DNA of 64,000 nucleotides, from the NCBI GenBank assembly GCA_043812155.1, contig JBDRMK010000017.1:13824-77823 (forward strand). The letters run 5' to 3'. This DNA comes from Patescibacteria group bacterium. Its GTDB lineage: Bacteria; Patescibacteriota; Patescibacteriia; JAXHNJ01. Below the pieces are notes generated by a model. That model was not told the origin of the DNA. It saw only the letters and a program-made list of their open reading frames with translations, and made no database searches. Shown one piece after another: positions 36,445 through 64,000 of this stretch (the first letter of the stretch is position 1; every line of letters starts with the position of its first letter). A program made the position numbers and the translations under genes.

Positions 36445-36453
36445 AATATATTC

Positions 36454-37539
36454 TTAAACAACTTCTCTTAAAGCCAGGCCCGAGGCGACTGCGAAACGGG
36501 GGCCGATTTCCTCCAGGACCGGTTTTAATTCTTCGGGGTAAGCCACTCTCGCCCAGGGATCGCCGATAATTGTTTTAATCTGGAAAAAATTGGATATATA
36601 ATCGGTCAGCCCCGGCAAAAAAGACGAGCCGCCGGCCAGAACTATTTTCTCCACCGGCACATCCTCTACATTATGATAAAGATTGAAGCAATGCTTGACT
36701 TCATTGGTAATAGAGGAAATGACAAATTCAATGGTTTTAGGAATCTGGCTTTGAGGATTAGAACCGGCGGAAAGGCCAAAATCCCTTTTAAACTGTTCCG
36801 CTCGCGCTAAATCAATATTCAAAGCGTTGGCGATGGCCTTGGTTATCGTTTCCCCGCCCACGTCAATCCCGCGGTTTAAAATCGGCACCCCTTCATAAAT
36901 GATGCAGATATTGGTGGCTAAAGCGCCGATATCAATGATCATAACCGGGGAAGGATCGGCTCCGATCAACGAGCGTTCCAGGGCGAAAGCTTCCGTCTCC
37001 AGGCTCACGATCTGCAAGTTAAGGGCCTTAAAAATTTCAATATATCTTTTAACCAGATTCTTGGGGGCGGCAGTCAATAATATTTTCAGATTTTTTGCCA
37101 TTTCCTTTGACTTCATGGCCATTGTCGGTGTCGTGTCCCGTCTAGGGCCGGCTAATTCTTTCAATAACCGCCAGTCTAATACCATTTCATCCAAAGGCAT
37201 GGGCACGAATTTCTTCGCCTCCCAGCGGATAGCGGCATTCAGATCCTTGTTGGACATCGCCGGCAGGGAAATTATTGAGGAAAAAACCGTAAAAGAAGGC
37301 AGGGCGGCCACGACTTTCGTGGCGGTGGCCCGGCTTTTTTTGATCAATTCCTTTAAAAGCTTGACGGTGCGGGCCTGGGCGGCTTGCGAGTCCGCTTTGA
37401 TAATATCAGTCGGTTCTTCAATAAAACCATACGTAATAAGCCTTGGTTCGCCGCTCCCGCCGGATAATTCCACTAATTTAAGGGAGGAAGTGCCTAAATC
37501 CAGACCAAGATAGCTTTTTTTACCCCCAAAAAGGGCCAT
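36454..37539 (-). CDS. pilM: Type IV pilus assembly protein PilM (actin-like ATPase)
   Basis: SYLGLDLGTSSLKLVEL and IDIGALATNICI, an actin/HSP70 fold. Confidence 0.85.
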   Translation of the reverse strand: MALFGGKKSYLGLDLGTSSLKLVELSGGSGEPRLITYGFIEEPTDIIKADSQAAQARTVKLLKELIKKSRATATKVVAALPSFTVFSSIISLPAMSNKDLNAAIRWEAKKFVPMPLDEMVLDWRLLKELAGPRRDTTPTMAMKSKEMAKNLKILLTAAPKNLVKRYIEIFKALNLQIVSLETEAFALERSLIGADPSPVMIIDIGALATNICIIYEGVPILNRGIDVGGETITKAIANALNIDLARAEQFKRDFGLSAGSNPQSQIPKTIEFVISSITNEVKHCFNLYHNVEDVPVEKIVLAGGSSFLPGLTDYISNFFQIKTIIGDPWARVAYPEELKPVLEEIGPRFAVASGLALREVV

Positions 37540-37620
37540 ATCATGACTTAATTAATTTTTATATTCAATACTGACTTAACTCTTATATTATAACAGATTT
37601 TTTTGAATTTTACAAGGGCT

Positions 37621-40600
37621 TTACGGAGAAACCTCGCTAATTTTCGGCAAAGCCTGGCTTAGATCCCGGAATCCCGGCGGCGGATTGAGCTGAACCCGGC
37701 CGTCATATATAAATAGTTCAGAGGGTTCAGGCGAAGAAATGGTACCTTTATAACGCCGGCCAAAACCAAATTCTTTGGCGATCATTAAGCCATATGCGGT
37801 TAATTTTTTATCGGCGGAGCCCATGCTTTGGACAATGATTTTCTTTTCAGAATAGTAAGCGCCTACCAACGTATCGACTGAAGGGCCAATATAAATATTG
37901 CCTTTGACATAAAAAGCGAGCGAAGCCAGTTTTTTCAGATTATCCACGTTTGTTGCCTTATAATTTATATTGCTTTCTATTATTAAATCGCCGTCAACAA
38001 CGAACAACCCAGAACCGTCAACAAGACCATTTTTAAAGATAAGGCCGGAAGTCAAAGTTAAATCACCCGGATGAAAACCCGCATAATCATTTTTATCGCG
38101 AATGCATATTACTCTTCCGTTTAAATCAATGTCATTGCCGCCGAAATATCCCGGCCCGGTTGATAAACTCCCCGAATAAGTTTGCGAGCATTTCGAAATC
38201 ATATCATTATAATCAACCCGGCCGAGAATACTGTTTGGCGCGGTATTTACCGGCAAAGTGAATTTCCGGTAATTTTGCACCAGCCAGGGGTTGGCGCTTG
38301 ATTGGGGTAATAAAAAAGAAGGATTCAAACGAGTGCTTGCCGATCCTTGAGAGGAAGAGCAAAAATTGACGATCCGGCCGGTGTCGCCGGCTAAAATAAG
38401 ATAGGTGGCGTTGCAGGCGTTGCCTTCTTCTTTGTAGCCGGGCGCTTTTGCCATTTCCTGCGACCCGACGCCTTTTTGGCCATATATATCTCCGTACAAA
38501 GTTTGCAGCCAAGCGGCGCCCGCCAGGCTGACCCGAGACATATCAACCCAGCCGAAATCCTCCGACCAGGCGTAGCCGTAAAAATTTCCGGCGTTTATAT
38601 CCGCGGATACGCCGTAGGCGTCGCAGCTTTCGCATTTATTGCAGGAAATATAATTTATTATCTCGCAAGTACCGGCTCCGCAATCATTGCTGTTATAGCA
38701 AGGATTACTGGGAATATTTGAGCAATTTCCGCGTTTACAGATGCCCCCGTTGCAATCGCTATTCCCAAGGCAAGGCCGGTAACGGAAAAGTTCGGGAGAG
38801 CTTGAAGAGCAGTAGCCGCTTGGAATGCAATCTCCCTGACCAATGTCTTGACAATGATCTTTGAGCGGATCTTCATTCACCACGCAGACTTCCTCCGGCT
38901 TGCCTTCGCAACGTCCGTCACCGCACTGGTTGTTAGAGCCATCGCATACATTGCAGGCATAATTTTCGCCTGGCTTAGTCACATCAATATTCAAGCCATC
39001 GCAAATTTTGCAAGTCATAAAAGCGTTGACCGTGTCAGGATTAGATAAAGTGCAGGCGTTGCAATTATGATAAATGTATTGGTCAGTCGGATTATTAATC
39101 TCCGGCGGAGCGGGCGGATTAGCAGGGCTGAAGTTCTGGCCGCCCCTTAATTTCAGCCAGCCGGCGGCCGGGGCATCAGCAAAATCCTTGTTCTTATATT
39201 CACAATTTTCAGAGATGCAGAATCCAGTACCGCAATCAGCGCCAGATAAACAAGCCTTGCCCGCATATTCGCCCAAAATACAAAATTTGCATTCATCATT
39301 TTTATAACAAGCGGTATCTTGGTGCGAACTGCACTGGCCCAGTTTAAACCGGCCCCAGCCAGTCAAGGCGTAACTTTGATAATCAAAAAAGGCCATGGCG
39401 TTATCTTCGTAGTCGCCTGCGGAAATAGTTTTTCCGCAAGGCGTATTAAAACTATTAAAACCGGAATCCGGGCAAACATTGCTAATTTTAAATTGATAAG
39501 GGCAGGCGGGCGGCTCACCGGTTTCATCCCGGTTAAACGAAAGCCAGCCCGCGGAAAAACAGCTTTTTGGATTATTGGCGCATAAAGCGCAGTCATCATC
39601 ATCATCACAGGTCAATGAATTATTATTGGAGCATACGACGGAAAAACACGTGGCGTCACTGCGTTCATTCGGATCAGTTACTCCAAGCCAGGCCTGGCCG
39701 GAAAGAGCGCCGACATCCTTATCCTGAAAACTGGGAGCCGGATCCCGGGCAACGCATGAATTTTGAGTATCCGCGGTTTCAGTTTCCTTCTTTAAATCAA
39801 CGCCATAAGAAAAAGTATTGCTCTCGCAAGAACCATTATTAAGGCAATTAAAGCTTATCCAGCCCATCGGCGCCTGGCGGGGGGTGCCATCGGCGCAAGT
39901 TTTTGTCAACAGGTTCGTCTGGCAGCTACCGCCGATATCAACGCAAAAATTATCGCAGTTATCGCCGCCCACATAAGCGTAACCGGCCGCATTGCCCGGC
40001 GAAAGTTTTAAGGCGACATTATCGCTGAGCTGGCCGGCGGTCGCCGATTGAAAATATCCGGCTGACCAGGTATGGGTCAGATCAAGGGAACTCATCCCAT
40101 ATAGGCGGCCGTTCTCCAGTTTGGGAACCGACTGGCGCGACCAATGCGAAGGATTATTATTCGCGTTCGCCGAAAAAATGGTCATGCCTTTGTCGCCGGA
40201 AAACCAGATATAAGGGGTGCCATTATCCAAACCGCCGGAAACAGCGTACATTTTTGTTTCCGGCTCGCTTGCCGGACGATAGGTGTCCCTTTGATTCCAG
40301 CTGCTGCCGTCATAATATAAATATTTTCGGCTGGAGATAGGGATATAGCCTTTGCCATCGCTGGTAAAAAAAACATCATAAAAATCCATGATGCAGTCGT
40401 TTTTCCAGGTTTTATTGGCCGTAACGGTTTCACAGGCCCACTCGCTGTTACCGGCGCAGAAACCGGAAGGCTGGCAAGGGCCATAATCTATGGGTGAAAA
40501 ACTCGTCTTTGCCCATGATATGCCTGATTTATTATAAATAATGGAATTCCCGCCCACGGCCCAACCGGTAGAATTATCGATCATATGCAGAGCCAAAAAA

Positions 40601-41295
40601 GGAACGCTTGGCCGGCTGCTGCCCGAGGCATAAGTGACCGGATTCCAGCATAAGTTTTGATTTGAAGATTCATAAATATCCCCTTTTTTTGTGGCTGGAT
40701 CATAACTGGTCGCCCAGCCACGACTATTTGTCCCCGCATTAGTAAAGCTGACGTCAGTTAAATTATCAGTCGTAAATAAAGCGCCGCTAAATGAGTTTTG
40801 AATCTCAGTTGAGGTACACGTCGTAAGTTGCTTATAGCTCACGTACCATTGATTCCCGGGTAAAGAGGTATAAAAAATTATACCTCCGTCTCCAACCGCC
40901 CAGAGTAATTCATTACCGGAAGTAATTTTCACCACGTTTGAGATAGCGTTTAATTTTACTTCCGTAACGCTAGAAAATTTATTAGCGAATAAACCCGCCC
41001 AAGCCCCTGCCTGACTGTTATATGACATGATAATGGGCACTTCAAGGTCGTTATCATGGACTGTGCCTGAAAGAAAGCCGCCGCCGACCGCCCAGGCTAA
41101 ATAGCGGTTATTTTCCGCGTCGTAATAAGCGGTAATATCAGAAAGCCGGCCTTGAGTGAAGCCGGCCGGCGAACCCAGCCGCTCCCATTCTTTGGCCTGG
41201 CTTTTATCTTCCGCCCAAAAAAACACCGCCCCGATGATCAGGACGAAGACCGGGACGATAAAATAAGCGGGATTTTCACGGATTAACTTGGGCAT
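37621..41295 (-). CDS. Giant (1224 aa) Cys-rich secreted/surface protein
   Basis: N-terminal TM/signal (YFIVPVFVLIIGAVFFWA). Many CxxC/CxC clusters; no recognised catalytic domain. Confidence 0.5.
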   Translation of the reverse strand: MPKLIRENPAYFIVPVFVLIIGAVFFWAEDKSQAKEWERLGSPAGFTQGRLSDITAYYDAENNRYLAWAVGGGFLSGTVHDNDLEVPIIMSYNSQAGAWAGLFANKFSSVTEVKLNAISNVVKITSGNELLWAVGDGGIIFYTSLPGNQWYVSYKQLTTCTSTEIQNSFSGALFTTDNLTDVSFTNAGTNSRGWATSYDPATKKGDIYESSNQNLCWNPVTYASGSSRPSVPFLALHMIDNSTGWAVGGNSIIYNKSGISWAKTSFSPIDYGPCQPSGFCAGNSEWACETVTANKTWKNDCIMDFYDVFFTSDGKGYIPISSRKYLYYDGSSWNQRDTYRPASEPETKMYAVSGGLDNGTPYIWFSGDKGMTIFSANANNNPSHWSRQSVPKLENGRLYGMSSLDLTHTWSAGYFQSATAGQLSDNVALKLSPGNAAGYAYVGGDNCDNFCVDIGGSCQTNLLTKTCADGTPRQAPMGWISFNCLNNGSCESNTFSYGVDLKKETETADTQNSCVARDPAPSFQDKDVGALSGQAWLGVTDPNERSDATCFSVVCSNNNSLTCDDDDDCALCANNPKSCFSAGWLSFNRDETGEPPACPYQFKISNVCPDSGFNSFNTPCGKTISAGDYEDNAMAFFDYQSYALTGWGRFKLGQCSSHQDTACYKNDECKFCILGEYAGKACLSGADCGTGFCISENCEYKNKDFADAPAAGWLKLRGGQNFSPANPPAPPEINNPTDQYIYHNCNACTLSNPDTVNAFMTCKICDGLNIDVTKPGENYACNVCDGSNNQCGDGRCEGKPEEVCVVNEDPLKDHCQDIGQGDCIPSGYCSSSSPELFRYRPCLGNSDCNGGICKRGNCSNIPSNPCYNSNDCGAGTCEIINYISCNKCESCDAYGVSADINAGNFYGYAWSEDFGWVDMSRVSLAGAAWLQTLYGDIYGQKGVGSQEMAKAPGYKEEGNACNATYLILAGDTGRIVNFCSSSQGSASTRLNPSFLLPQSSANPWLVQNYRKFTLPVNTAPNSILGRVDYNDMISKCSQTYSGSLSTGPGYFGGNDIDLNGRVICIRDKNDYAGFHPGDLTLTSGLIFKNGLVDGSGLFVVDGDLIIESNINYKATNVDNLKKLASLAFYVKGNIYIGPSVDTLVGAYYSEKKIIVQSMGSADKKLTAYGLMIAKEFGFGRRYKGTISSPEPSELFIYDGRVQLNPPPGFRDLSQALPKISEVSP

Positions 41296-41325
41296 GGAAA
41301 AATTCTTGTCAAAAAATAGTTGGAT

Positions 41326-43269
41326 CTACGGCGTGGTATCAAAATAGCACAAACACTTATTTGCCAGGGTGGTATTGGCACAACCGACAGAAGCGCCGTT
41401 GGCATCAAACTGAGCCAGACATTTTGCCGTAGTGTATGTAGGCGTAGGACTTAAAGGAGTGGTAAAGCCAGTACAGACAACCGCGCAGGAAATGGCGCCA
41501 CTTTTTTCTACGACAAAGGTTGACCATGCCGTCTGGGTGGCGTCAGAATTTTTTACCATCGGTACACCCTGAACCGCCACATTACCCTCAAAATATCCGG
41601 CGTAAGCATTAGTTTGCCCGGCGAATTTTGAATTGGAAAGATTAGCCTTAGCATACAAAGCATAACTGGTGCCAGCGCCAGAAATATGCACCGCATTACC
41701 AACATCAGAATAAATCCCATAATTGATAATATTTGATCCGCCGCTATTGTCATGGTCGCCCGTCGCTATATTTATTCCATAAATCGGCCCATTAAATGTC
41801 CAGCGAGAATTCGCTACTTGCACATCAAGGCCAATAGGTTGGGTGTATTCTGAATTACTTATCCTTAAGCCAGTCGTAGAACCATTATTAACATATTGCT
41901 TGGGAATCTCTATTTTCACCTCACCATAAAAATAACCAGCCCAACAATTTCCAGTATCTAGATAATTCTCTAAATCGCTTGGACCGCCACATTTAAAGTA
42001 GCCGGCGTAAAAAGGTCCGGGATTATCTATCGGCGAATTATAAACTTCCGCTCTAACCGCATAACCAGTTGCCTGCTTCGCCGAGCCGGTATCTACATCC
42101 AATATTGCTCTAACCGCCGAGCTATATTTAGCTGGGTCAGCTAAAGGCTCCCGGTCGCCTTTGGTGCTAAAATATCCGCCATATCCTTCGCCACCTTGTT
42201 CACCTACCAAGGCCGCATTATCAGAATTGGCATAGGCATAAATAGCGTCCCCGGAAGAACCGACTTTCAAAGCGGTAGTAGGATTATTGACCACGAACTT
42301 GGCCGTGGGGCTGTTTTGGCCGATACCAATCTTACTCCCTGTTTCATAAATAATGGAATTGGCTAAAGTATTCCCGTCAGGGCTAAATTTGGTCACCCAA
42401 TTCACCGCTCCGTTACTAACTACTCCGCCAGAGCCGGAAGGCCAGGAAGAAATACAATTGGCTCCGGCAATGCAATATTGGCTGGCAGACACTTTCCCGG
42501 AAAAATTGCCGGCGTAGCCGGTGCTGCTATTTTCCGCATAAATAGCCGAACCAGCGGAAGTATTTTTGACCATCAGAGAATCGAAGTTTTCGGCAGTTAA
42601 AGAGTCGGGCGTAAAACCAACGTAGAATTTACCCGGCGTATAAACGCCGTGGGAAAAATCGTTATTATAGTTCAAAGTCAAAAGTCCGTTGCTGTTCAAA
42701 TTCACCAGCGCCCGGCAGCCGTTGCTATTGCAGACGCCCTCGCGGTAAATATGCAAATCGCCGTAACGGCCGGCGCCCTGCATCCCGGTATATATCTGTC
42801 CGGGAAAATAAGTGGTCCCTGTATTAGAATCCAATTGTATAAAATTCTCGCTGGCCGAGGTTTTTGAGCCTAATATCAAGCTACCGGAAGAATATAGGCC
42901 TAAACCGTTCGCGATCCAGGGAAACTTGACAGGTTTGAAAAACTTGCCCATTTCCAGGACATACGTGTCGGAAGCGTCGCCGTTGATCACAGAGGCCACT
43001 CCAGCATAGAGAGTTAATTTCCGATTATTTAACGCATCAAAAGGGATAGCGGCATTGGCCACGGGGATAATATTAGTAAACCAATCGGTTTTATCCTTGA
43101 CTTGATTGTCTAAAAGAGAAGGGCTTAAAAGAGCGGTCAAACCGCTTTGAGATAAATAAAAACTTGAGCTGGCCTGATTAAAGGCTTTTTCCGGCTGAAT
43201 CACGAGTAATCCGGCAAAAATAAAAGCGATGACCAGGAAAATTTTAGGGATGATTTTTAAGAATTTCAA
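41326..43269 (-). CDS. Large secreted Gly/Ser/Asn-rich beta-helix-like surface protein
   Basis: 647 aa with an N-terminal signal/TM and repetitive GxxGYAG/YAGYF segments. Confidence 0.45.
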   Translation of the reverse strand: MKFLKIIPKIFLVIAFIFAGLLVIQPEKAFNQASSSFYLSQSGLTALLSPSLLDNQVKDKTDWFTNIIPVANAAIPFDALNNRKLTLYAGVASVINGDASDTYVLEMGKFFKPVKFPWIANGLGLYSSGSLILGSKTSASENFIQLDSNTGTTYFPGQIYTGMQGAGRYGDLHIYREGVCNSNGCRALVNLNSNGLLTLNYNNDFSHGVYTPGKFYVGFTPDSLTAENFDSLMVKNTSAGSAIYAENSSTGYAGNFSGKVSASQYCIAGANCISSWPSGSGGVVSNGAVNWVTKFSPDGNTLANSIIYETGSKIGIGQNSPTAKFVVNNPTTALKVGSSGDAIYAYANSDNAALVGEQGGEGYGGYFSTKGDREPLADPAKYSSAVRAILDVDTGSAKQATGYAVRAEVYNSPIDNPGPFYAGYFKCGGPSDLENYLDTGNCWAGYFYGEVKIEIPKQYVNNGSTTGLRISNSEYTQPIGLDVQVANSRWTFNGPIYGINIATGDHDNSGGSNIINYGIYSDVGNAVHISGAGTSYALYAKANLSNSKFAGQTNAYAGYFEGNVAVQGVPMVKNSDATQTAWSTFVVEKSGAISCAVVCTGFTTPLSPTPTYTTAKCLAQFDANGASVGCANTTLANKCLCYFDTTP

Positions 43270-43309
43270 AACTAAATGGATTAATATAATTAATTAAAAT
43301 TAATATCGC

Positions 43310-44845
43310 TTAATCAGATATAAAACCGGTTTCAGTTTCTCCAGGACCGCAACTCTTTTTGCATTGGTAAGAAGGAGCGCAGCATTTTCCGCCGGCGGGA
43401 CAGTTAGCGCTGGTAATGCAATAAACGCAACAATCATAGGACGTTCCGCCGATAGAACCGTCTCCATCGTCGCAAGGATTTGTTATCGGATCACTATCCA
43501 TGCACCATTGGTTGATCGGACAACGGCCGGCGAGGGCGAATTTATTGGCGCAGTCCGCAGGGCAGCTTTGGCAGGTTTCCGGCACGCCGCATATTCCGTC
43601 CCCGCAATAATAAGCGGAGTTTAAAGTCTTAAAAGTTTTCGTTTCGCCGTATGTGTAATTGCCGTAGATATCCCAAATAATCACCCGGTAGGAGTAAGTT
43701 AAATTTTTTGTTAAACCAGATAATGGTAATGAATAGGCGGTATTCTCGGGGATCAAAAGCGGCGCCAGCTTGTAATAACTCCATTGATTATCAGTAATGT
43801 CAAAATCATATTCCACTTTTCCGTAATGGTCTTCCGTTGATTGCCAGTTGATTACAGCACTGGTTTCCTTGATATTTGTCACGGTGATCCCTGGAGGCGA
43901 AGTGAAAGTTGGCGGACAATCCTGGGTGCAAGTGGCATTCGTTTCATTGTTATTGCAGGCCCCGTCGCCGCAAGTATATATAGTGTCGGGCGGTTTCTTT
44001 TCCAAATCGCCCGGCTGGCCGATAATCACGCTGCCTTTATTCGTCGCTTTTACGTAAAATTTGGCGTCCGCGCTGCTGGTGCCGCCTACCGCTAAATTTG
44101 AACTTAAATTTGTGACATAGGTGTCGACATTATTCTGGCTCCAATATCCCCCAGAACCGCTGGTCGGCCAAGTATCTCGGAAGACTCCGCCTAACCATAA
44201 ACCGCCGTTTTCAATTCTAACGTCCCCGTAAAAATAACCGGCGTAAGAATCATCACCCAAGGCGCTGCCATAAATACCGCTGCAACGATTGTCATTGCAG
44301 ACCGCCTGACCCCAAACGCCATAAGTCTGGGTACCTCCAGTAACAAGAGACGCTGTGGTGCCAAAAATCCCCGTCGTTCTTCCCGACGATAGCGTGGGCG
44401 GCGCATAGCCGGAAACCGCGAACCTGCTGCCGCTGTCGTCTGTCGGCTTAAGCGTGGTCCAGCCCGCGTTTTCCAGATCTAATACCACGTAATCGCCCGC
44501 CGCTCCGGCGGCTAGTGAAGTCCAAGCGGTATTTTTACAATAATATACAGTATTATCTGCCGAATTATAGGCTACTTGCCCAGTCTCGCAAGGATTGGCA
44601 GTCAATGTTCCAGGATTTAACTTAATTATGCCAAGAGTACCGCCGCTTCCAATATTTAAAGTTCCTATTTTTGTTTGAGTAGTGGCAGAAACATTGATCG
44701 GGGCGGCGACATTTCCTCCGGGCGGGGCGGCGGTCGGCTCGGTCCAAGCTCTTGCTTCCGGCCCAAAAACAAAAAATCCTCCCAAAAACAGACAAAAAAT
44801 AAGGGAGAATAGGGGGATTTTTGCGATTTTATCCTTTATAAGCAT
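43310..44845 (-). CDS. Secreted surface protein with FN3-like region and Cys-rich C-terminal tail
   Basis: Start chosen at MLIKDKIAKIPLFSLIFCLFLGGFFVFGPEARA (signal peptide), which avoids overlap with the 44982 plus-strand gene. Internal ITVTNIKETSAVINWQ... (FN3-like). C-terminal CGDGICG...CPADC.... Confidence 0.45.
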   Translation of the reverse strand: MLIKDKIAKIPLFSLIFCLFLGGFFVFGPEARAWTEPTAAPPGGNVAAPINVSATTQTKIGTLNIGSGGTLGIIKLNPGTLTANPCETGQVAYNSADNTVYYCKNTAWTSLAAGAAGDYVVLDLENAGWTTLKPTDDSGSRFAVSGYAPPTLSSGRTTGIFGTTASLVTGGTQTYGVWGQAVCNDNRCSGIYGSALGDDSYAGYFYGDVRIENGGLWLGGVFRDTWPTSGSGGYWSQNNVDTYVTNLSSNLAVGGTSSADAKFYVKATNKGSVIIGQPGDLEKKPPDTIYTCGDGACNNNETNATCTQDCPPTFTSPPGITVTNIKETSAVINWQSTEDHYGKVEYDFDITDNQWSYYKLAPLLIPENTAYSLPLSGLTKNLTYSYRVIIWDIYGNYTYGETKTFKTLNSAYYCGDGICGVPETCQSCPADCANKFALAGRCPINQWCMDSDPITNPCDDGDGSIGGTSYDCCVYCITSANCPAGGKCCAPSYQCKKSCGPGETETGFISD

Positions 44846-44981
44846 GGAAAAGGATTCAAATTTTTGTTTATATTTATTCAATATCTGGCCAAAACGAGCT
44901 TTTGACAGCCGGGCGTCTAAACTATATAATAACATAAGAAAGACTATTTTGTCCAGGATAATACGAAACATAACATAACCT

Positions 44982-45521
44982 TTGTCAATGATAAATAACA
45001 AAAGGGATAATAAAAGGCGTACGGCCTTACCTTGGCCTAAATTCTTGATCATTTCCGGACTGCTGATCGCCGCGCAAATTTTATTTATCACAGCTAATTA
45101 CTTGGGGCGAGAATCAAAGAATGGAAAACCGGCCACGGAGCCTAAGATTCTGGGAGTCATCACGCCAGGCGAAAACGAACCCAAGGAATTCGAAAAACCG
45201 GAAAATTTCAACCGGACCGGAAAAATATTGAAAATAGAAGCCAACAAAATCAGCCTGGAATCGATCTACCTTCTTGACATGAAAATTGTCCAGGCGGTTT
45301 TAACCATCAGGACGGACCATAACACGAAAATACAAAAAAGAGACCTGGCTCAAATTTTTAAATCAGCGGACTCGGAAAACGCTGGAGTGGAAATGATGGA
45401 AATTAAAGACTTAAAAATCGGCGATAATGTGGTCGTCACGGCCGGCGAAAATATAAAATACAAAAATGATTTTCTGGCCGAAATTATCGAATTAAGATAC
45501 GATTCAAGCGATAAAAATTAA
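44982..45521 (+). CDS. Hypothetical membrane-anchored protein
   Basis: 179 aa with one TM (FLIISGLLIAAQILFITA). Confidence 0.4.
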   Translation: MSMINNKRDNKRRTALPWPKFLIISGLLIAAQILFITANYLGRESKNGKPATEPKILGVITPGENEPKEFEKPENFNRTGKILKIEANKISLESIYLLDMKIVQAVLTIRTDHNTKIQKRDLAQIFKSADSENAGVEMMEIKDLKIGDNVVVTAGENIKYKNDFLAEIIELRYDSSDKN

Positions 45522-50651: not shown

Positions 50652-50745
50652 GGAGAGGTGGCCGAGTGGCTGAAGGCGGCAGGTTGCTAACCTGTTATGC
50701 GGGTTTAAATCCGTATCGCGAGTTCGAATCTCGCCCTCTCCGCCA
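50652..50745 (+). tRNA. tRNA-Ser (anticodon GCT), with encoded CCA
   Basis: Acceptor GGAGAGG/CCTCTCC, anticodon arm GCAGG-TTGCTAA-CCTGT, long variable arm, T-arm GCGAGTTCGAATCTCGC. Confidence 0.85.
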
Positions 50746-51236: not shown

Positions 51237-51326
51237 GGTGGGATGGCTGAGTGGCTGAAGGCGCTGGTCTTGAAAACCAGAGTCGCTGCAAGGCGACCGC
51301 AGGTTCAAATCCTGCTCCCACCGCCA
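51237..51326 (+). tRNA. tRNA-Ser (anticodon TGA), with encoded CCA
   Basis: Acceptor GGTGGGA/TCCCACC, anticodon arm CTGGT-CTTGAAA-ACCAG, long variable arm GTCGCTGCAAGGCGAC, T-arm GCAGGTTCAAATCCTGC. Confidence 0.85.
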
Positions 51327-51974: not shown

Positions 51975-52046
51975 GCCCTCGTCGTTCAACGGATAGGACG
52001 CAGGATTGCGGATCCTGCAATAGAGGTTCGATTCCCCTCGAGGGCA
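51975..52046 (+). tRNA. tRNA-Arg with unusual anticodon GCG (one A-C mismatch in the T-stem)
   Basis: Acceptor GCCCTCG/CGAGGGC, D-arm GTTC-AACGGATA-GGAC, anticodon arm CAGGA-TTGCGGA-TCCTG, T-arm AGAGG-TTCGATT-CCCCT, discriminator A. Confidence 0.55.
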
Positions 52047-57023: not shown

Positions 57024-58373
57024 TTAATAACCGAATACTTCTTTAATAGCCTCGGGTAAATTTTTGACGCGGACAAGATTTAATTTCGACTGGCCGATTT
57101 TGGCATTCGCACTTAATATCACTTTATTGAATCCCATTTTTTCAATTTCATTCAGCCTTTTGTCGATCTGGGAAACCGTGCGGATCTCCCCGCCCAAACC
57201 GATTTCGCCCAAGACGACTGTTTTTTCCGGAATGATCTTATTTTTAAAAGCCGAAGCGATAGCCAAAGCCACGGCCAGATCCACGGCCGGTTCGGTCACT
57301 TTAAAGCCGCCGACCACGTTGACATAAATATCCTGGTTGCCCAAAGACAAGCCGCAGCGCTTGGCTAAGACCGCGATGATCATTTGCAGCCGGTTGTAAT
57401 CCACGCCATTGGCTGTTCTTCTCGGCAGGCCAAAAACCGTGGTATTGACCAAAGCCTGGATCTCCACTAAAAAAGACCGCGAGCCTTCCAAAATGGCGGC
57501 CACGCAGGAACCGGCGGATTTCTGCCGTTCCGCCAGGAATACTTCCGAAGGATTTTTTACCTCGATCAAGCCTTCGGCCCGCATGTCAAAAACTCCCACT
57601 TCATTGGTGGAGCCGAAGCGGTTCTTCGTGCTGCGCAAGATCCGGAACGCGTGGTACTTGTCCCCTTCCAGATATAAAACCGCGTCCACCAGATGCTCCA
57701 TGGACTTAGGCCCGGCCAAGACCCCTTCCTTGGTCACGTGGCCGATGATAATAATGGTGATATTGTTTTTTTTGGCCAGCTCCAAAAGTTTCACCGTGCA
57801 GACCCGCACCTGGCCTTGGCTTCCTGCTTCAGATGGCAGATCCTCCCAAAAAATGGTCTGGATGGAATCAATGATCGCCAGTTTAGGCTTAGCCTTGTCC
57901 AAAGTGGCGATAATATTATCAATGTTTGTTTCCGATAAAAACTTCAAATTCCCGGATTTCAGGCCGATCCGGTCCGCCCGCAGCTTGATCTGCTCCGGTG
58001 ATTCTTCCCCGGAAACATAAATGGTTTCGGCGTCCAATAAATTTATCATCTGCAGAACCAGGGTGGATTTGCCGATCCCCGGCTCGCCGGTCATCAAAAC
58101 CAAAGAACCCGGCACCAGGCCGCCGCCTAACACCCGGTCTAATTCGGCTAAGTTAGTCTTGAAACGCTCAACCTCTTTGCCTTCAATTGAACCGAAATCG
58201 GTCAGCTCCCCGACCTGGCCGGCCGTAATCTGCCGGCGGTCCGGAGCCTGCTTTATTTCCGGCGCTAAAGTCCCCCAGGCGCCGCACTCCAGGCACCGGC
58301 CCAGCCATTTAGGGCTTTGGGCTCCGCATTTGCTGCAGGCGTAAACAGTGTTTTTCTTTAACTTATTTTTCAT
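57024..58373 (-). CDS. radA: DNA repair protein RadA/Sms
   Basis: N-terminal zinc finger CSKCGAQSPKWLGRCLECGAWGT, Walker A GEPGIGKSTL, the KNRFG motif and a C-terminal Lon-protease-like domain. Confidence 0.93.
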   Translation of the reverse strand: MKNKLKKNTVYACSKCGAQSPKWLGRCLECGAWGTLAPEIKQAPDRRQITAGQVGELTDFGSIEGKEVERFKTNLAELDRVLGGGLVPGSLVLMTGEPGIGKSTLVLQMINLLDAETIYVSGEESPEQIKLRADRIGLKSGNLKFLSETNIDNIIATLDKAKPKLAIIDSIQTIFWEDLPSEAGSQGQVRVCTVKLLELAKKNNITIIIIGHVTKEGVLAGPKSMEHLVDAVLYLEGDKYHAFRILRSTKNRFGSTNEVGVFDMRAEGLIEVKNPSEVFLAERQKSAGSCVAAILEGSRSFLVEIQALVNTTVFGLPRRTANGVDYNRLQMIIAVLAKRCGLSLGNQDIYVNVVGGFKVTEPAVDLAVALAIASAFKNKIIPEKTVVLGEIGLGGEIRTVSQIDKRLNEIEKMGFNKVILSANAKIGQSKLNLVRVKNLPEAIKEVFGY

Positions 58374-58381: not shown

Positions 58382-59596
58382 TTATAGGCTGGGAGTGTTA
58401 TAAACGCCCGGCGGGCAAGGAGTGGAAATACGTATCGCCTCAAAATGCCACCACTCCCCGCAATAGCGATAAAAACCCGCTTTCTGCATGACTTTCTGTA
58501 AAATAGTCTGGGGACCGTAGTCCGGACTGCTCATTGGGGCATTGTTTATCGTGGATAATTTTGTGCATGATGAATCATCATTACCAATTTTATAACATAA
58601 GTCTACGGCCAGACCGCTGACATGCGGCGATTCACAGCTAGGTTTGGCCGCCGGGCTGCAATTACCGATCTTTTTACATTCTTCTGAACAGCCTAAGCCC
58701 TTGTATTGCTCATAACAATCATAAAGTTTTTGCTGTAATTCCAGGGGGCGCCAAGCGCTCATGACCACTATCTTCATGTTTTGTTTTATCAATTCCTTGG
58801 CGGCTTTATCCAGCATAGGAATGACTTGGCTGCGGATTTGGCAGTCACCAGAACATCTACTGCTAATTTCAATGTAATCTTTATTGATATAATCACTTAT
58901 TTTAACCATCTCGCTGTCGGTGGGACATTGACTGATAGATATCGCTTCTTTTTCTAATAATTCCCGGGGGATGATATTCAGCGAAATAGTGCTCCATTTA
59001 ACCAAACCGGGGTTTATGGCGTAAAGCAGAACATAGGCGGTTAAAGTCAGTACCAAGCCGATTAAGGCCCCGTTCATGGTGGATTTGGCTTTTTCAATCC
59101 GGCTGGCATTGCCCGAGGCGGTGACCCATTGAAAACCGGAAAAAAGGATCATCACAGTGGCCAAAATGCCGGCCGCGGCGGCGAAATAACGGTAAAAAGC
59201 GGATATATATTCTCCAATAGTGTTGCCGGTCACTTCTTTTGCCCCTTCAAAACCCGGTAAAGGCTGCTGAAGAGTAATTTTGCCAACACCCAGTGTCTCC
59301 GCCGCCGGCTGACCTTTCGCAATACAAAAAATCTGTGATTTAACCGGGTCAGACTGCAAACAACAATAAGAGGCGGCGCAATCGCAGACAATTTTTTCGG
59401 TATATTTATCGCCGCAAAGATTATTGACGCAAGAAACAGGGTAATAATCCATAGTTGGAGGATCACAAGCCTTTAAAACCCCGTAATCCGGATCAATGAT
59501 GACTTCCTGGGCATGAATTGGCGGTGGAAATAAAAATACTGCCAATCCTAAAACTAAGAGAAAAAAGAAAATATCTATTTTTATTGTCTTACGCAT
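58382..59596 (-). CDS. Mosaic envelope protein: signal peptide, Cys-rich domain, conserved 2-TM hairpin core, and C-terminal M15 (VanY/LAS-type) D,D-peptidase-like domain
   Basis: The C-terminal region has SPHVSGLAVDL (SxHxxGxAxD) and EWWHFE (ExxH), LAS metallopeptidase signatures. The central block IGEYISAFYRYFAAAAGILATVMILFSGFQWVTASGNASRIEKAKSTMNGALIGLVLTLTAY is shared with the 61485-62813 ORF. Confidence 0.55.
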   Translation of the reverse strand: MRKTIKIDIFFFLLVLGLAVFLFPPPIHAQEVIIDPDYGVLKACDPPTMDYYPVSCVNNLCGDKYTEKIVCDCAASYCCLQSDPVKSQIFCIAKGQPAAETLGVGKITLQQPLPGFEGAKEVTGNTIGEYISAFYRYFAAAAGILATVMILFSGFQWVTASGNASRIEKAKSTMNGALIGLVLTLTAYVLLYAINPGLVKWSTISLNIIPRELLEKEAISISQCPTDSEMVKISDYINKDYIEISSRCSGDCQIRSQVIPMLDKAAKELIKQNMKIVVMSAWRPLELQQKLYDCYEQYKGLGCSEECKKIGNCSPAAKPSCESPHVSGLAVDLCYKIGNDDSSCTKLSTINNAPMSSPDYGPQTILQKVMQKAGFYRYCGEWWHFEAIRISTPCPPGVYNTPSL

Positions 59597-60223
59597 TTAT
59601 TTTATCAACTCCTCGTTAATGATCTTCTTTAGTTGTTCATAGGTCGGCAATTCGGTGAACACATATTGATTGACGTAAAAATGCGGAGTCCCGTTCACCC
59701 CCAAGCCTGTTCCCTCGTTAATATCCGCCTCAATTAATTTTATGGTTTCGTGGTTGTTCACGCAACTGGCAAATCTATCTATATCCAAACCGATTTCCTC
59801 CGCCAAGACCACATACAAATCACTCGATAGATTTCTCTGATTCTCGAAGATCTTGTCATGCATCTCCCAGAATTTCCCCTGTTTTTGGCTGCAGCGGGCG
59901 ACCTCCGCCGCGGTCATAGCCTGGGCATGAATGCTGTAAATAGGAAAATCTTTCCAAACGATCCGGATATCCTCTTTATATTCCTCTTTTAATTTATTGA
60001 AAGAAACAGCCAGCTCGGCGCAAAATGGGCATTCAAAATCGCCGAATTCTATAATCTGAATTTTAGCCTTTTTATCGCCTAGGGTCGGAGACTGGCGGCT
60101 TACTTCCGGAAAATCATATGTTTTCGTTTTTCTGGAAAAAGAAAAAACGGAGATCGCCAAAATCAGCAAAACAACCAGGCTTAAGACAATGAGAATATTA
60201 ATGCTTAATTTTGATTTATTCAT
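59597..60223 (-). CDS. DsbA-like thiol:disulfide oxidoreductase (thioredoxin fold), membrane-anchored
   Basis: CPFC active site in EFGDFECPFCAEL, with an N-terminal TM. Confidence 0.7.
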   Translation of the reverse strand: MNKSKLSINILIVLSLVVLLILAISVFSFSRKTKTYDFPEVSRQSPTLGDKKAKIQIIEFGDFECPFCAELAVSFNKLKEEYKEDIRIVWKDFPIYSIHAQAMTAAEVARCSQKQGKFWEMHDKIFENQRNLSSDLYVVLAEEIGLDIDRFASCVNNHETIKLIEADINEGTGLGVNGTPHFYVNQYVFTELPTYEQLKKIINEELIK

Positions 60224-60230
60224 GAAAGGC

Positions 60231-61475
60231 TTATTTCAGTCTGATTTGGTAGAGCCGGCCGGTCGTTTGATCGGTAAAGTATAGCAGGTCTTCGCCTGAA
60301 GAAAGAAAGATCTTATCCGCCGTAAAAGTGCCGTAACCCGAACTATCGACCGGGAGAGCAAGAAGAGTTTTTACCCCCGTATTTAAGTCGATTTTATAAA
60401 ACTCATCAGCCACGCCATTGGTTATTTCCGGATAAAGATCGCTGCCGGAAGGCAAATAGGTGGGCACGGCGCAGTATATGGTGTCTAAACTGCCAAAGGC
60501 GCATTTATCCGGCCAGGTCTGGATGTCTAATTCCTGGGGCGATCCGCCTAGATTGGCCAGGGTGCCGTCCATCACCCAAAGAGTGGGGTTATAACTGGTG
60601 TTTGAGCTGGAAATACTGTATAGGATTTTATCACCGCCCGGAGACCAGCGGCCGTTAAAATTAAGGCCGTCAACTTTTACCGCCGGAAAATTTTCATTAT
60701 TCAGGCCTAAAAAAATAATATCTTGTTCCGTCGACGTGCTGGTATCCGTATAGTAGGCCACCATCTGGTTGTTCGGCGACCAGTCAACTTTGACTAGATT
60801 CGTCTTATCGCCCAAAGCCTCCACTACTTGGGCGCCGGAGCCGTCAGGGTTGGAGACCGCGAGCCAATTTTCATCAGGCTGGGCTCCCACATATTTATAG
60901 GCGATTTGACTGCCGGAAGGAGAAAAAGAAAATTCAGTGGTTTCCCTCGGCAAACTATACTGTTTATCCTGGTTGAAATCATAGACAATTTTTGACCCGT
61001 CAGGGAAACTCAAAACCGCTTTATCGCGTGCCGGCGACCAATAGATTTTATCCACCTGAGGATACTTTTGCTGGGTTAAAAGGGTTTCGCTGGAGCCGTC
61101 GGCCGCTTTCTTTTTGAACTCGCCGGTGTATTTATCATAATAAATAATATCTTTTTTATTGCCGGCCATCACCAGATCCTGAGTGCTCTGGCTGATGATC
61201 TCTTTGGCCGAGGTATAACCGCCCGCCGCCACTTCCGAAGGCGGCTGATAAACGCCGTTGATATTGGGCAAAACCCCATTGACATTCGCTTGGCCGTTTA
61301 TATTGGCCTCCGGCCGATTGATAAGATTCACATTGGGCAGCACCCCGTTGACATTATAATTGCTGATGTTGGCATTCGGCGTCGGCGCAAAAAACAGGCG
61401 GAAAACAAAATAGCCGAAACCGACGGCTATGCCGAGAAAAATGACGACTAAAACGATTTTTTTCCAAAGAGTCAT
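60231..61475 (-). CDS. Membrane-anchored TolB-like (PD40) beta-propeller protein
   Basis: N-terminal TM, then PD40-like repeats (WSPARDKAVLSFPDGSKIVYDF..., WSPGGDKILYSI...). Paralogous in architecture to the 2794-4164 ORF. Confidence 0.5.
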   Translation of the reverse strand: MTLWKKIVLVVIFLGIAVGFGYFVFRLFFAPTPNANISNYNVNGVLPNVNLINRPEANINGQANVNGVLPNINGVYQPPSEVAAGGYTSAKEIISQSTQDLVMAGNKKDIIYYDKYTGEFKKKAADGSSETLLTQQKYPQVDKIYWSPARDKAVLSFPDGSKIVYDFNQDKQYSLPRETTEFSFSPSGSQIAYKYVGAQPDENWLAVSNPDGSGAQVVEALGDKTNLVKVDWSPNNQMVAYYTDTSTSTEQDIIFLGLNNENFPAVKVDGLNFNGRWSPGGDKILYSISSSNTSYNPTLWVMDGTLANLGGSPQELDIQTWPDKCAFGSLDTIYCAVPTYLPSGSDLYPEITNGVADEFYKIDLNTGVKTLLALPVDSSGYGTFTADKIFLSSGEDLLYFTDQTTGRLYQIRLK

Positions 61476-61484
61476 AAATTTTAT

Positions 61485-62813
61485 TTATTGAAAATTTACC
61501 ATTGTTAAATCCAAAGGCACGCAACATTTATTACTGCAGGAGGCTTGTCCAGTTTTATAATTCCCAGGCATGTTATTAAAACCAGTGCTCAAACCTAAAA
61601 TAGCGTCATTACAGCTCACTTCTTCATAATTAAATTTTGGGATTAAATTACAGGCCACCAACGAACAGACAATGTCGCTTTTACTGATAGAGGCGCAGCA
61701 AACCGCATCTAAACCAAAACCAACCCGGTTAGTGTCATTGCAGGGAAAAGTCATTTTTACGATTTTGCCGGTATAAGGCACGTCGGATTCAATTTCCTTG
61801 GGTTCCCCTTTATCCCAGCAAGCGGTTTCCGAATCGTTATTGGAGCCGCCGTACTGGCAAGAAATTCTTAGTTTCGTACTACTGCCGCAGGTTTTCAAAA
61901 TATTCGGATCCATCAAATAGCCAAAGTAACATTTATCCGGATAACCAATGGTTGGCATCCAGGACGTCGCGATCATTTTTAATTTAGTCGTTCGGTCAAT
62001 CTGCCGGCAAATATAGGAAGGGTAGCCACCAGCCTTACTAAAGACATCGTCAATCTGCTGACATTTGCCCGGCTCCGTGTTCTCGCAAAGCTCTTTCGCG
62101 TTTTGACAGTTAAAGGTGTCATTGTCGAAATTCGGGCCGCAAACTTCACCCGTTACCGAACAATAATGGCCGAGGCATTCCCCGCTGCCGTCTTTAAATT
62201 GTAAAATTTTCCCGCAATCCAATGCTGGGCTGTCTTTAGTCAGAGTAACGCCGGCTTTTTGATACTCATCATAAATAGCCAGCTTATCCAAAGTGAATTG
62301 CCGGCAAAAAACCGCGGAAAGATATTCCGATTTAACCGGCGTCAGATAAAGGCTGTTAAAACTTACAAGATCCGGATTAATGGTCCTTAAAAGAACATAA
62401 GAAGTAAGGGTTAAAACTAACCCTATTAGCGCGCCGTTCATGGTGGATTTGGCTTTTTCGATCCGGCTGGCGTTGCCCGAGGCCGTGACCCACTGGAAAC
62501 CGGAAAATAATATCATCACCGTCGCTAAAATTCCGGCGGCGCCGGCGAAATATTTGTAAAATTGGGAGATGTATTCACCGATATCATTAACACAGTATTT
62601 CCCCTGGCTTTTATAAGGCTCCGTCTGGCAGGGCTCGGTGAAACCGTAGATAGGAACCTGCAAAGGGATTTCTTTAATAAAGGTTTCGGTCGCGGCCTGA
62701 GCCTTGACTTCCACGGGTTTAAAGAATAATATGGTAATTAAAAAAACGGGAAGAAGAATAACAAATAATTTTTTTTGATACGGCATACAATAAATATGAT
62801 TAAAAAATTTCAC
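61485..62813 (-). CDS. Mosaic envelope protein sharing the 2-TM core with 58382-59596 but carrying a different Cys-rich C-terminal domain
   Basis: 58 of 62 aa are identical in the core block. The DNA is about 85% identical over roughly 150 bp (62399-62585 vs 59032-59221). The flanking domains are unrelated. Confidence 0.55.
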   Translation of the reverse strand: MKFFNHIYCMPYQKKLFVILLPVFLITILFFKPVEVKAQAATETFIKEIPLQVPIYGFTEPCQTEPYKSQGKYCVNDIGEYISQFYKYFAGAAGILATVMILFSGFQWVTASGNASRIEKAKSTMNGALIGLVLTLTSYVLLRTINPDLVSFNSLYLTPVKSEYLSAVFCRQFTLDKLAIYDEYQKAGVTLTKDSPALDCGKILQFKDGSGECLGHYCSVTGEVCGPNFDNDTFNCQNAKELCENTEPGKCQQIDDVFSKAGGYPSYICRQIDRTTKLKMIATSWMPTIGYPDKCYFGYLMDPNILKTCGSSTKLRISCQYGGSNNDSETACWDKGEPKEIESDVPYTGKIVKMTFPCNDTNRVGFGLDAVCCASISKSDIVCSLVACNLIPKFNYEEVSCNDAILGLSTGFNNMPGNYKTGQASCSNKCCVPLDLTMVNFQ

Positions 62814-62826
62814 AGATTATTATTAT

Positions 62827-63534
62827 TTATTTGCAGACTTTAAAGATCCCTCCAGATTCTCCTATCATCCGAAAGAATGCGGCCGCCTGTAAGTAACCCA
62901 TATCGCTTCTGAAACCACAGGGATCATTCTTGGCGTAAATGATTAAACCCGCCAATATTACACCCACGACAATGACAATAAAAATAATCAACCATATCCA
63001 CCAGCTAACTGATAACAAGGCGGCGCCGATCGGTCCAATAACCACGCGAAGAAGCCACTGCCAACCTTTTTTCACCGCTTGTTTTGCCCCCTCCTTGATC
63101 ATTTTCTGCAGGTATTCTTTTTTCGCTTTTTCTAAGTCTTGTCTAAATTTTCTCGCCCAATTAGATTGTTCGTCATCTCCGGAAGGAGGATAAGAAAGGT
63201 TGACAGAATCATCATCATCGGACGATTCGCCTCCTGTCTTTTTTTCCGCCGGCGATTGGGGGAACGGCGCAGACGAGGGAGACGGATTAATCCCTTTTCC
63301 TTTTTCCTCCTCTCCGCCACCCTTTTTCTCGTCCGGCGGATAAGAATAATTAGAAGGCGACTCCTCGTCCGGCGATTCAGGGGACGGTTCGGCTGATGAT
63401 TCAGGATAATTAACCGGCGAAGGCGACGGCTGACTGCCTTCTCTTTTGCTGGCTAATTTCCGACTGTCAAGCTCGCGGGCAATATTCCTCTCTTGATTAT
63501 TTCGATTAAGATTTTTTTTTGGTTTTGGCGGCAT
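62827..63534 (-). CDS. Membrane protein with a disordered Ser/Pro/Glu-rich N-terminus containing SYPP repeats
   Basis: 235 aa with C-terminal TM helices (WWIWLIIFIVIVVGVILAGLII). Confidence 0.4.
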   Translation of the reverse strand: MPPKPKKNLNRNNQERNIARELDSRKLASKREGSQPSPSPVNYPESSAEPSPESPDEESPSNYSYPPDEKKGGGEEEKGKGINPSPSSAPFPQSPAEKKTGGESSDDDDSVNLSYPPSGDDEQSNWARKFRQDLEKAKKEYLQKMIKEGAKQAVKKGWQWLLRVVIGPIGAALLSVSWWIWLIIFIVIVVGVILAGLIIYAKNDPCGFRSDMGYLQAAAFFRMIGESGGIFKVCK

Positions 63535-63551: not shown

Positions 63552-64000
63552 CTATTGGGTATTAATTTTATCTTGCCAGGTCGCCTGATTGACCAGCCAG
63601 GTCTCGCCCTCTTTTTTAAATTGTAAAAGTAAATTTTGAAAATAACTGGCCGTTTCGGCGGTTTCGTTTCTCTCTGTCCGCTGGGCCGTTACCTGGCAAT
63701 TCGCTTTTTGGGGAGTTATACCGGTAATATTTTCGGCGACCACTTTGGTAAAAATGGCGAAATACGGGGCGTTTACCGCTTTCACCTGCTCCCGGGCGAC
63801 AAACTGATCAGTTTCGTTCTGCAAAGAAGCGGTCATCCCGCTTTTTAAATCGATAAAGCTCTGAAAATCATTATTGTTCGAGTAACTGCCGTAGCGTTCG
63901 GCAAAAGTAAAGCAGATTTCTTTAATAATGGCTTCATCCGTAATTACGGCGGCGTTGGTATTTTGGTTTGAGTTAATATTGCCATCCGCGTTAGCGTTTG
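63552..64000 (-). CDS. Hypothetical protein, 5' end beyond the window edge
   Basis: The reading frame stays open upstream of the listed Met to position 64000 (..NANADGNINSNQNTNAAVITDEAIIKEICF..). Confidence 0.35.
   Translation of the reverse strand, partial: NANADGNINSNQNTNAAVITDEAIIKEICFTFAERYGSYSNNNDFQSFIDLKSGMTASLQNETDQFVAREQVKAVNAPYFAIFTKVVAENITGITPQKANCQVTAQRTERNETAETASYFQNLLLQFKKEGETWLVNQATWQDKINTQ

Follow-up and report, generated by a model that had tools for sequence, protein, structure and literature searches.

A VirB2-like pilin hairpin fused to a predicted peptidoglycan hydrolase in a probable type IV secretion operon of Patescibacteria

Chromosomal type IV secretion systems (T4SSs) have been described in Patescibacteria (Wang et al., 2023, PMC10633639; Quiñonero-Coronel et al., 2025, PMC12102498) and were highlighted in a 2025 review (PMC12857230). 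They are related to MPF_FATA and contain PrgI, TrsD, VirB6 and VirB2-like (PF18895) pilins, usually without a relaxase; arrays of VirB2-like pilins lie near virB4, and the T4SS loci of class ABY1 "commonly include" comF, recG and radA (PMC12102498). In the one species tested, Southlakia epibionticum, the T4SS cluster scores as essential by transposon sequencing, including six small pilins and the adjacent lysozyme-like protein SEML1_0006 (PMC10633639), and an action of Patescibacteria T4SSs on the host is suspected (PMC11665869). The 2025 survey counted every PF18895 match as a pilin; it detected VirB1 homologues in few genomes and inferred that pilus biogenesis is VirB1-independent, with other hydrolases as possible substitutes (PMC12102498). 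Here we analyze a stretch of 64,000 nucleotides from a Patescibacteria genome (assembly GCA_043812155.1, contig JBDRMK010000017.1, positions 13,824 to 77,823; hereafter the window), in which a cluster of genes encodes two large cysteine-rich membrane proteins of 404 and 442 amino acids (aa) with a nearly identical core of two transmembrane (TM) helices. Judged from its sequence, this core is a VirB2-like T4SS_pilin hairpin; in the 404-aa protein it is fused to a predicted peptidoglycan peptidase, and the region probably belongs to a T4SS operon.

The five open reading frames (ORFs) of the cluster, all on the minus strand, and the 62-residue block common to two of them had been reported in an earlier note on this DNA, and both are borne out by ORF coordinates, alignment, blastp and blastn. 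Exactly 58 of the 62 residues are identical (window positions 59033-59218 and 62397-62582). The underlying DNA is identical at 147 of 186 positions (79%, or 83% in the best 150-nt window), close to the approximately 85% over 150 bp first estimated, which was slightly high, and third codon positions account for 29 of the 39 nucleotide differences. The similarity of the two proteins is far beyond chance (blastp E = 1e-43, blastn E = 6e-46) and continues more weakly around the block over about 130 aa at 62% identity (aa 94-214 of the 404-aa protein, aa 37-165 of the 442-aa protein). No similarity was found between them outside this stretch, the flanking Cys-rich domains being unrelated, and no third copy of the core is present within the window. 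The block matches Pfam family PF18895 (T4SS_pilin) with 35.2 bits in the 404-aa protein and 35.5 bits in the larger one, hereafter protein B (gathering cutoff 26.6); all 13 homologues of protein B match it too, and NCBIfam gives sub-threshold matches to a pilin-like conjugation protein of a Mycoplasma integrative and conjugative element.

Hydropathy and charge predict the same layout for both proteins, namely a signal peptide, an N-terminal domain, a first TM helix, a K/R-rich loop, a second TM helix and a C-terminal domain. Cysteine accounts for 5.0% and 5.5% of their residues, against 1.18% in the other genes of the window, and the predicted topology places all of these cysteines outside the cytoplasm, an even number in each segment (8 + 12 for the 404-aa protein, 2 + 22 for protein B). 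The earlier view of these domains as unrelated and extracytoplasmic agrees with blastp and the predicted topology. A signal peptide followed by a hydrophobic two-helix hairpin with a short basic loop is the layout expected of VirB2-like pilins. Classical VirB2 pilins are about 70-130 aa long. Mature small pilins of that length consist essentially of the hairpin, whereas the proteins described here, of 404 and 433 aa, carry extra domains of about 65-290 aa.

The 404-aa fusion (58382..59596) is composed of a signal peptide, an N-terminal domain with 8 Cys, the hairpin (core at aa 127-199, 59000..59218) and an ectodomain with 12 Cys that resembles the zinc peptidases VanX and VanY (catalytic region at about aa 250-390, 58427..58849). 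It is identical to an NCBI protein annotated as "M15 family metallopeptidase" (P0001). The ectodomain matches Peptidase_M15 (PF01427) with 31.5 bits (cutoff 27) and VanY (PF02557) with 26.2 bits (cutoff 25). Across 14 fusions sharing 27-61% identity, several cysteines are conserved and R283, Q288, H325, D332, E381, W383 and H384 are invariant, forming the motifs H325-x6-D332 and E381-W-W-H384. The best solved-structure match of the family profile is VanX (1r44, E = 2.9e-5), with whose zinc site the motifs align (H-x6-D with SSHSRGSAID, and EWWH with EWWH); after VanX, the profile matches structures of VanY-like proteins, YodJ, VanXY, Ply500 and LdcB, and DacB is also among the matches. With profile scores above cutoff, invariant motifs and the VanX alignment, the C-terminal domain is confirmed at sequence level as a predicted M15/LAS peptidase, as the initial description of a VanY-like enzyme had it.

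Protein B (61485..62786; named "pilin" at NCBI, P0009) has 433 aa when read from the ATG at 62786. Its ORF extends to a GTG at 62813 (61485-62813, 442 aa), and the ATG is favoured by the alignment of orthologues and by the NCBI gene call. The protein consists of a signal peptide, a short N-terminal segment with 2 Cys, the hairpin (core at aa 78-150 in the 442-aa numbering, 62364..62582) and a C-terminal ectodomain of about 290 aa with 22 Cys. Homologues share 26-86% identity and conserve the cysteines. Profile searches with the C-terminal domain gave no match in the PDB or in Pfam, and in an AlphaFold2 (AF2) model only helices 69-101 and 106-136 reach moderate confidence. This domain may be a surface or host-contact domain.

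Three related loci, designated here by L numbers, gave a genomic position for orthologues of the M15 fusion: P0002 (60% identity) in L001, and P0003 (42%) in L002 and L003. All three share one gene order: a protein of about 490-570 aa that we call X570, PrgI (VirB3-like), a TraC-like protein (PF26593), a VirB4-type ATPase, proteins of about 195 and 180 aa, the pilin-domain protein (424-432 aa), a propeller protein (414-418 aa), a DsbA-like protein and the pilin-M15 fusion. The VirB4-type ATPase matches P-loop_TraG with 99 bits, and also AAA_10 and DUF87. After the fusion come radA, recG and ClpB in L002 and L003, whereas L001 ends soon after. In a further locus, L084, the same set of genes likewise comes directly after the PrgI, TraC-like and VirB4 genes, and radA adjoins the hydrolase gene in L002, L003 and L084. 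The locus contains only two pilin-domain genes.

The window carries, upstream of protein B, the next two members of this order. The first, Z235 (235 aa, 62827..63534, minus strand), is matched by a hidden Markov model (HMM) of its orthologues at 6e-110 and holds the same position in L001 and L002. It has a low-complexity N-terminal half rich in Pro, Ser and acidic residues, a hydrophobic TM region at about 162-198, and 2 Cys in its short C-terminal tail; searches of Pfam and NCBIfam gave no match, and it is a conserved component of the T4SS operon. The second, Y200 (63555..64000, minus strand), is cut by the window end, which leaves the C-terminal 148 aa of a protein of about 195 aa. It was identified by an HMM built from the L001 and L002 orthologues (2e-64 over residues 1-148), and it aligns with a 194-aa protein encoded directly downstream of virB4 in L001; a 94-aa ORF at 63552-63836 is part of the same gene. 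Y200 orthologues comprise a TM anchor, an Asn-rich linker and a domain of about 130 aa, and the protein may be a ring-building or VirB8-like component. The family (L001 5601-6185, window 63555-64000) also gives a weak, sub-threshold SpoIIIAH-like match (20.8 bits against 30.6). Since the window end carries a Y200 homologue, the window stops inside the operon, and virB4 is expected just past position 64000.

A wider scan, seeded on the EWWHF motif with an alignment of 6 sequences, covered 80 loci that were mostly ordinary M15 genes of other phyla; the useful ones among them were L004-L015, L017, L027 and L034. The triad of propeller, DsbA and pilin-M15 recurs in the distant loci L005, L008, L015, L017, L027 and L034, and in partial form in L006 and L007. 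Labels found among the more distant loci are Kerfeldbacteria, Falkowbacteria, Uhrbacteria and Parcubacteria. In L005 and L006 the triad (partial in L006) is contiguous with VirB4. The earlier expectation of a cluster conserved as a unit is thus supported by the synteny of L001, L002, L003 and L084 and by the triad in distant loci. The components of an ABY1-type T4SS locus (PrgI/VirB3, TrsD/TraC-like, VirB4, VirB2-like) were seen in L001, L002, L005, L006 and L084, where a pilin gene also lies next to virB4; upstream of its pilin genes, the window itself shows only Y200 and Z235 before it ends. We take the relatives that could be named, all from candidate phyla, to belong to GTDB class ABY1. 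The class is also suggested by the radA/recG context (PMC12102498), radA and recG both lying inside the window. Taken together, we consider it likely that the region is the distal half of a chromosomal Patescibacteria T4SS operon of the ABY1-class locus type, derived from Gram-positive conjugation systems.

Four of the loci that carry the pilin-M15 fusion (L008, L012, L015, L027) come from metagenome-assembled genomes (MAGs) titled "uncultured Gammaproteobacteria bacterium" (binchicken co-assemblies), and three of these (L008, L015, L027) have the triad; the Gammaproteobacteria labels are probably wrong. The operon's first conserved gene encodes X570 (L001 523-2232, L002 1008-2486), which has no Cys, no Pfam match and no predicted TM segment, and for the latter reason was rejected as VirB6. 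Nor was a polytopic candidate for VirB6 apparent within 10 kb upstream of the pilin genes.

The catalytic domain of the fusion varies among loci. In L084 (GCA_964637345.1) and L085, a fusion of T4SS_pilin with an SLT domain follows the propeller and DsbA genes in place of the pilin-M15 fusion, and in L084 this gene directly precedes radA. These fusions score 60-64 bits for SLT (cutoff 21.3) and 33.6-34.7 bits for the pilin domain. The last slot of the operon is therefore always occupied by a pilin hairpin joined to a predicted peptidoglycan hydrolase, of which the catalytic chemistry varies. When 1.84 billion representatives (clusters at 50% identity) were searched with a profile of the fusion family, 1,153 proteins matched at E <= 1e-30; the best 150 representatives all contain the hairpin (150/150), 119 of the 150 also show the H-x6-D…E-x-W-H motifs, and their median is 15 Cys. 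The family had been called modular and recently shuffled: the M15/SLT swap, variable N-terminal domains and tandem hairpins speak for the modularity, and the recency does not stand (see below). As to the tandem hairpins, the metagenomic representatives P0184, P0185, P0218, P0220 and P0302 carry 3-6 T4SS_pilin hairpins in 460-620 aa with few Cys, as covalently concatenated "pilins", of which we found no description in the Patescibacteria T4SS papers.

The pilin-hydrolase fusions are candidate substitutes for VirB1 and probably supply the function reported as lacking; a survey by PF18895 would have counted them as VirB2. The M15 fusion is invisible to the VirB1, TrsG and CD419 profiles, which presumably accounts for the absence of VirB1 in the 2025 survey. 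The survey texts on Patescibacteria T4SSs make no mention of M15, DsbA, thioredoxin or propeller proteins, and thioredoxin, VanY and M15 are likewise unmentioned in the text supplements of PMC12102498. We found no description in the literature of what appears here from sequence comparison, a pilin hairpin fused to a swappable hydrolase in the last slot.

The near-identity of the two hairpins was attributed in the earlier note to recent domain shuffling or gene conversion. In the window genome, protein identity between the 73-aa cores is 90% and DNA identity 76%, with a proportion of synonymous differences (pS) of 0.685 and a nonsynonymous distance (dN) of 0.10. Over a 66-aa core comparison pS is 0.66, near the 0.78±0.08 of randomly drawn synonymous codons, and the ratio of nonsynonymous to synonymous change (dN/dS) is about 0.06, indicating strong purifying selection. 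With synonymous sites near saturation, recent conversion in this genome is rejected, and the identity reflects purifying selection. Pure orthology of the hairpins is rejected too, since paralogues cluster by genome: the two hairpins of one genome are 90% identical in the window genome, 92% in L001, 81% in L002, 88% in L005, 94% in L006, 81% in L009 and 74% in L017, that is 74-94% within these 7 genomes against 44-70% between distantly related ones. Core pS falls below the random-codon expectation in L005 (0.27), L006 (0.49) and L001 (0.50). The simplest reading is concerted evolution through occasional conversion tracts together with selection for fit, whose contributions are inseparable.

Two further proteins accompany the fusions. 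The DsbA-like thiol:disulfide oxidoreductase (208 aa, 59597..60223) matches Thioredoxin_4 with 104.5 bits (cutoff 23.2) and DSBA with 68.3 bits; it has a CPFC motif at 65-68, a cis-Pro-type GTP at 178-180 and a predicted TM anchor at 10-28, whose orientation is inferred. Its profiles and motifs agree with the thioredoxin-fold CPFC oxidoreductase proposed at the outset, and the gene keeps the same position in 11 related loci. The other is a 414-aa protein (60231..61475) with a TM helix at 3-29, a disordered Asn-rich linker at 35-73 and a propeller at 80-414. The AF2 model of this protein has a predicted local distance difference test score (pLDDT) of 89.2 and a predicted template-modelling score (pTM) of 0.78, and a cysteine pair, C325/C335, is invariant among homologues. 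The family counts at least 144 homologue clusters; each comes from Patescibacteria or from MAGs without a name, and lengths are uniformly about 405-430 aa. Linkers of the same Asn-rich kind occur in the Y200 family.

This 414-aa protein had been called TolB-like, of which the β-propeller stands and TolB does not. A TolB identity was rejected on the TIGR02800 score (32.1 bits against a cutoff of 343) and on the modelled architecture, which is TM helix, linker and propeller without the TolA-binding α/β domain; no tol or pal genes are found in the locus (window, L001, L002). A Foldseek search with the model returned about 1,800 propellers at similar scores, among them those of prolyl endopeptidase, tricorn and WD40 proteins both natural and designed; TolB came tenth (TMq 0.40). 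According to the model, the protein is a generic membrane-anchored β-propeller.

Intergenic gaps in the cluster measure 0-13 bp, or 40 bp ahead of protein B when translation is taken from the ATG at 62786. On the same strand radA (57024..58373, identified by Pfam matches) begins 8 bp past the stop codon of the pilin-M15 gene, and the sole minus-strand terminator-like hairpin found by a terminator scan lies after it (57012-56996); the transcription unit appears to end with radA, which looks to be transcribed together with the T4SS genes. Elsewhere in the window, the minus strand at 28961-45091 carries a type IV pilus cluster (PilC, PilT, PilB, PilO-like, PilM) followed by three large proteins of 1224 aa (56 Cys), 647 aa and 593 aa (26 Cys). 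None of these three has a Pfam family above its curated cutoff, and the 593-aa protein has a single sub-threshold match, to Pur_ac_phosph_N (22.2 bits, cutoff 30). A 243-aa protein with 12 Cys is encoded at 12038-12769. Cys-rich exported proteins are therefore a wider theme of this genome, and the DsbA-like protein may have more clients. Four tRNAs are present (9770-9844, 50652-50742 (+), 51237-51323 (+) and 51975-52046), the second and third being long (91 and 87 nt) and probably class II; an Rfam scan of the window gave nothing else above threshold.

We propose that the two pilin-domain proteins would be inserted by Sec and their signal peptides cleaved, the K/R-rich loop of the hairpin then facing the cytoplasm and the Cys-rich domains on either side of it lying outside. 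The operon's DsbA would oxidise the disulfides of the ectodomains, and probably the cysteine pair of the propeller. The hairpins would dock the ectodomains onto the VirB4/PrgI/TraC-like machine, where they may build a short pilus or stalk, or adjoining membrane subunits. The M15 or SLT domain would then open the peptidoglycan locally, M15 acting on peptide stems or cross-links, so that the machine crosses the wall, as hydrolases of the VirB1 and PrgK type do for other T4SSs, while the propeller and the Cys-rich domain of protein B could serve as scaffold or contact surfaces. Fit to the same assembly, helped by occasional gene conversion, would keep the hairpins alike in each genome. More speculatively, and rather improbably in our estimate, the VirB2-like hairpin may be a portable "address tag" that places interchangeable disulfide-stabilised ectodomains (M15, SLT, Cys-rich) on a T4SS filament or stalk of Gram-positive type. 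If so, the structure would be an enzyme-decorated heteropolymeric conduit drilling the cell wall, possibly that of the host, in epibiosis, and the co-variation of hairpins within a genome would be a signature of co-assembly.

A number of points weigh against this interpretation. As virB4 lies outside the window, the link to a T4SS is drawn through orthologous loci at 42-93% identity. The M15 Pfam scores barely exceed their cutoffs, the predicted enzyme may be a D,D-carboxypeptidase, a dipeptidase or an L,D- or endopeptidase, and its target may be the organism's own wall or that of a host. Other Cys-rich exported proteins of the genome are possible additional clients of DsbA. The model of protein B has a pLDDT of 48.8 and gives no confident fold for its C-terminal domain, and ectodomains of 200-290 aa may not fit VirB2-type helical packing, in which case polymerisation would perhaps never occur. 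The hairpins might be membrane anchors only, holding a tethered enzyme and an adhesin in a class of T4SS without filament, a reading that we judge possible though on the unlikely side. In size both proteins exceed classical VirB2 and the S. epibionticum pilins (104-185 aa) 3-4 times, and they bear bulky disulfide-rich domains at one or both ends; there are two hairpin copies only, with no small stand-alone pilin in the window or in the 20-kb orthologous loci, and Gram-positive T4SSs generally lack pili (PMC10633639). Yet the score for the pilin family is above threshold, and strong purifying selection with co-variation within genomes exceeds what a simple anchor would call for and suggests specific helix packing. 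Moreover, structures of the F and T pili show outward-facing subunit termini, and external decoration of VirB2-type subunits is therefore conceivable.

The choice of target raises a related alternative, somewhat doubtful in our view, in which the M15 or SLT domain attacks the host wall at the contact between epibiont and host, and is not a VirB1-like factor for the own wall. Patescibacteria are largely obligate epibionts whose T4SS is suspected to act on the host (PMC11665869), the predicted enzyme is held at the cell exterior by the subunit type of a secretion machine, and a peptidase or a transglycosylase occupies the same slot, as might be expected if host walls differ. However, a tethered enzyme would have to reach past the producer's envelope, and no signal for cleavage or release was found in it, and the domain swap is equally explained by remodelling of the own wall, as with VirB1 or PrgK. 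That the M15 protein is instead a housekeeping D,D- or L,D-carboxypeptidase (VanY/LdcB-like), in the operon by chance, would accord with the VanY-like, YodJ, LdcB and DacB structures that its profile also matches and with the plain NCBI name; it is improbable: at least 119 representative clusters join the M15 domain to a T4SS pilin domain, diverse Patescibacteria encode the protein at one constant place in the operon, and a pilin-SLT fusion substitutes for it there. Least credible, and hardly tenable, is the reading of the earlier note, for which the genes formed an undescribed, dedicated and free-standing surface or host-interface module, recently shuffled and separate from known secretion systems. 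It is true that no secretion ATPase adjoins the cluster inside the window, that the family is modular, and that T4SS surveys are silent on M15, DsbA, thioredoxin and the propeller. But the window ends inside the operon, VirB4, PrgI and TraC-like genes are contiguous in every related locus that is long enough, and synonymous change in the shared block is close to saturation. The core, moreover, is PF18895, and a known pilin or secretion-system domain was the very finding that the note had named as telling against it; the cluster corresponds to the distal part of a described system, the Patescibacteria T4SS operon.

If the region is such an operon, then in many genomes one of the counted "pilins" is a pilin-anchored predicted peptidoglycan hydrolase with a swappable catalytic domain, always accompanied at these loci by DsbA and a β-propeller, and PF18895 matches should not be equated with pilus subunits. 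The fusions would be concrete candidates for how the T4SS machine crosses the wall.

Compared with individual known components, the propeller shares with TolB the β-propeller and weak PD40-like repeats; in place of the N-terminal α/β domain of TolB it carries a TM anchor with a disordered linker, it lies outside any Tol-Pal context, and the propellers of prolyl oligopeptidase, WD40 proteins and tricorn rank equal to TolB or higher in the fold search. TrbB and TraF of the F plasmid are thioredoxin-fold proteins encoded in a conjugation operon. The DsbA-like protein shares the CxxC thioredoxin fold with them and with the Gram-positive BdbD/DsbA, and like TrbB/TraF is encoded in a T4SS operon, presumably to fold disulfide-bonded parts of an exported machine; it differs in being of the membrane-anchored Thioredoxin_4/DsbA type with likely clients that are unusually Cys-rich (20-24 Cys). 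VanX, VanY and LdcB (MEROPS M15, LAS fold; 1r44 being the best match) have in common with the M15 domain the H-x6-D and E-x-x-H motifs and the conserved upstream Arg, whereas here the domain is predicted to be extracytoplasmic, has 12 Cys and a pilin-hairpin tether, and stands outside a resistance-operon context. VirB1, PrgK (pCF10) and TraG (pIP501) are likewise operon-encoded extracytoplasmic wall hydrolases of T4SSs, those of Gram-positives being membrane-anchored and multidomain, and VirB1 resembles the sister loci in its SLT domain; the enzyme of the window is a predicted M15 zinc peptidase and not SLT or CHAP, and its anchor is a VirB2-like hairpin.

With the pilins VirB2, TrbC and TraA (PF04956; PF18895), the two proteins share the signal peptide, the two helices, the short basic loop and the linkage to VirB4, but they are 3-4 times larger, with disulfide-rich domains on both sides of the hairpin, one of them predicted to be catalytic, and they are pilin-like by sequence. 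The closest relatives of the whole locus are the MPF_FATA-derived Patescibacteria T4SSs (Wang et al., 2023, PMC10633639; Quiñonero-Coronel et al., 2025, PMC12102498; PMC12857230), with which it shares PrgI/VirB3-like, TraC/TrsD-like and VirB4 genes together with PF18895 genes in a single operon on the chromosome, the lack of any visible relaxase or coupling protein nearby, and the adjacency of radA and recG known from class ABY1. Like the S. epibionticum cluster it encodes a wall hydrolase, but there the lysozyme-like protein is separate and six small pilins of 104-185 aa are present, whereas here the hydrolase is fused to a pilin hairpin and two large Cys-rich proteins (404 and 433 aa) take their place. 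The conserved DsbA and anchored β-propeller are also unmentioned in the Patescibacteria T4SS papers. The locus would thus represent a variant architecture of a known T4SS, with oversized pilin-domain proteins, a hairpin-anchored predicted hydrolase, DsbA and propeller partners, and co-varying hairpins.

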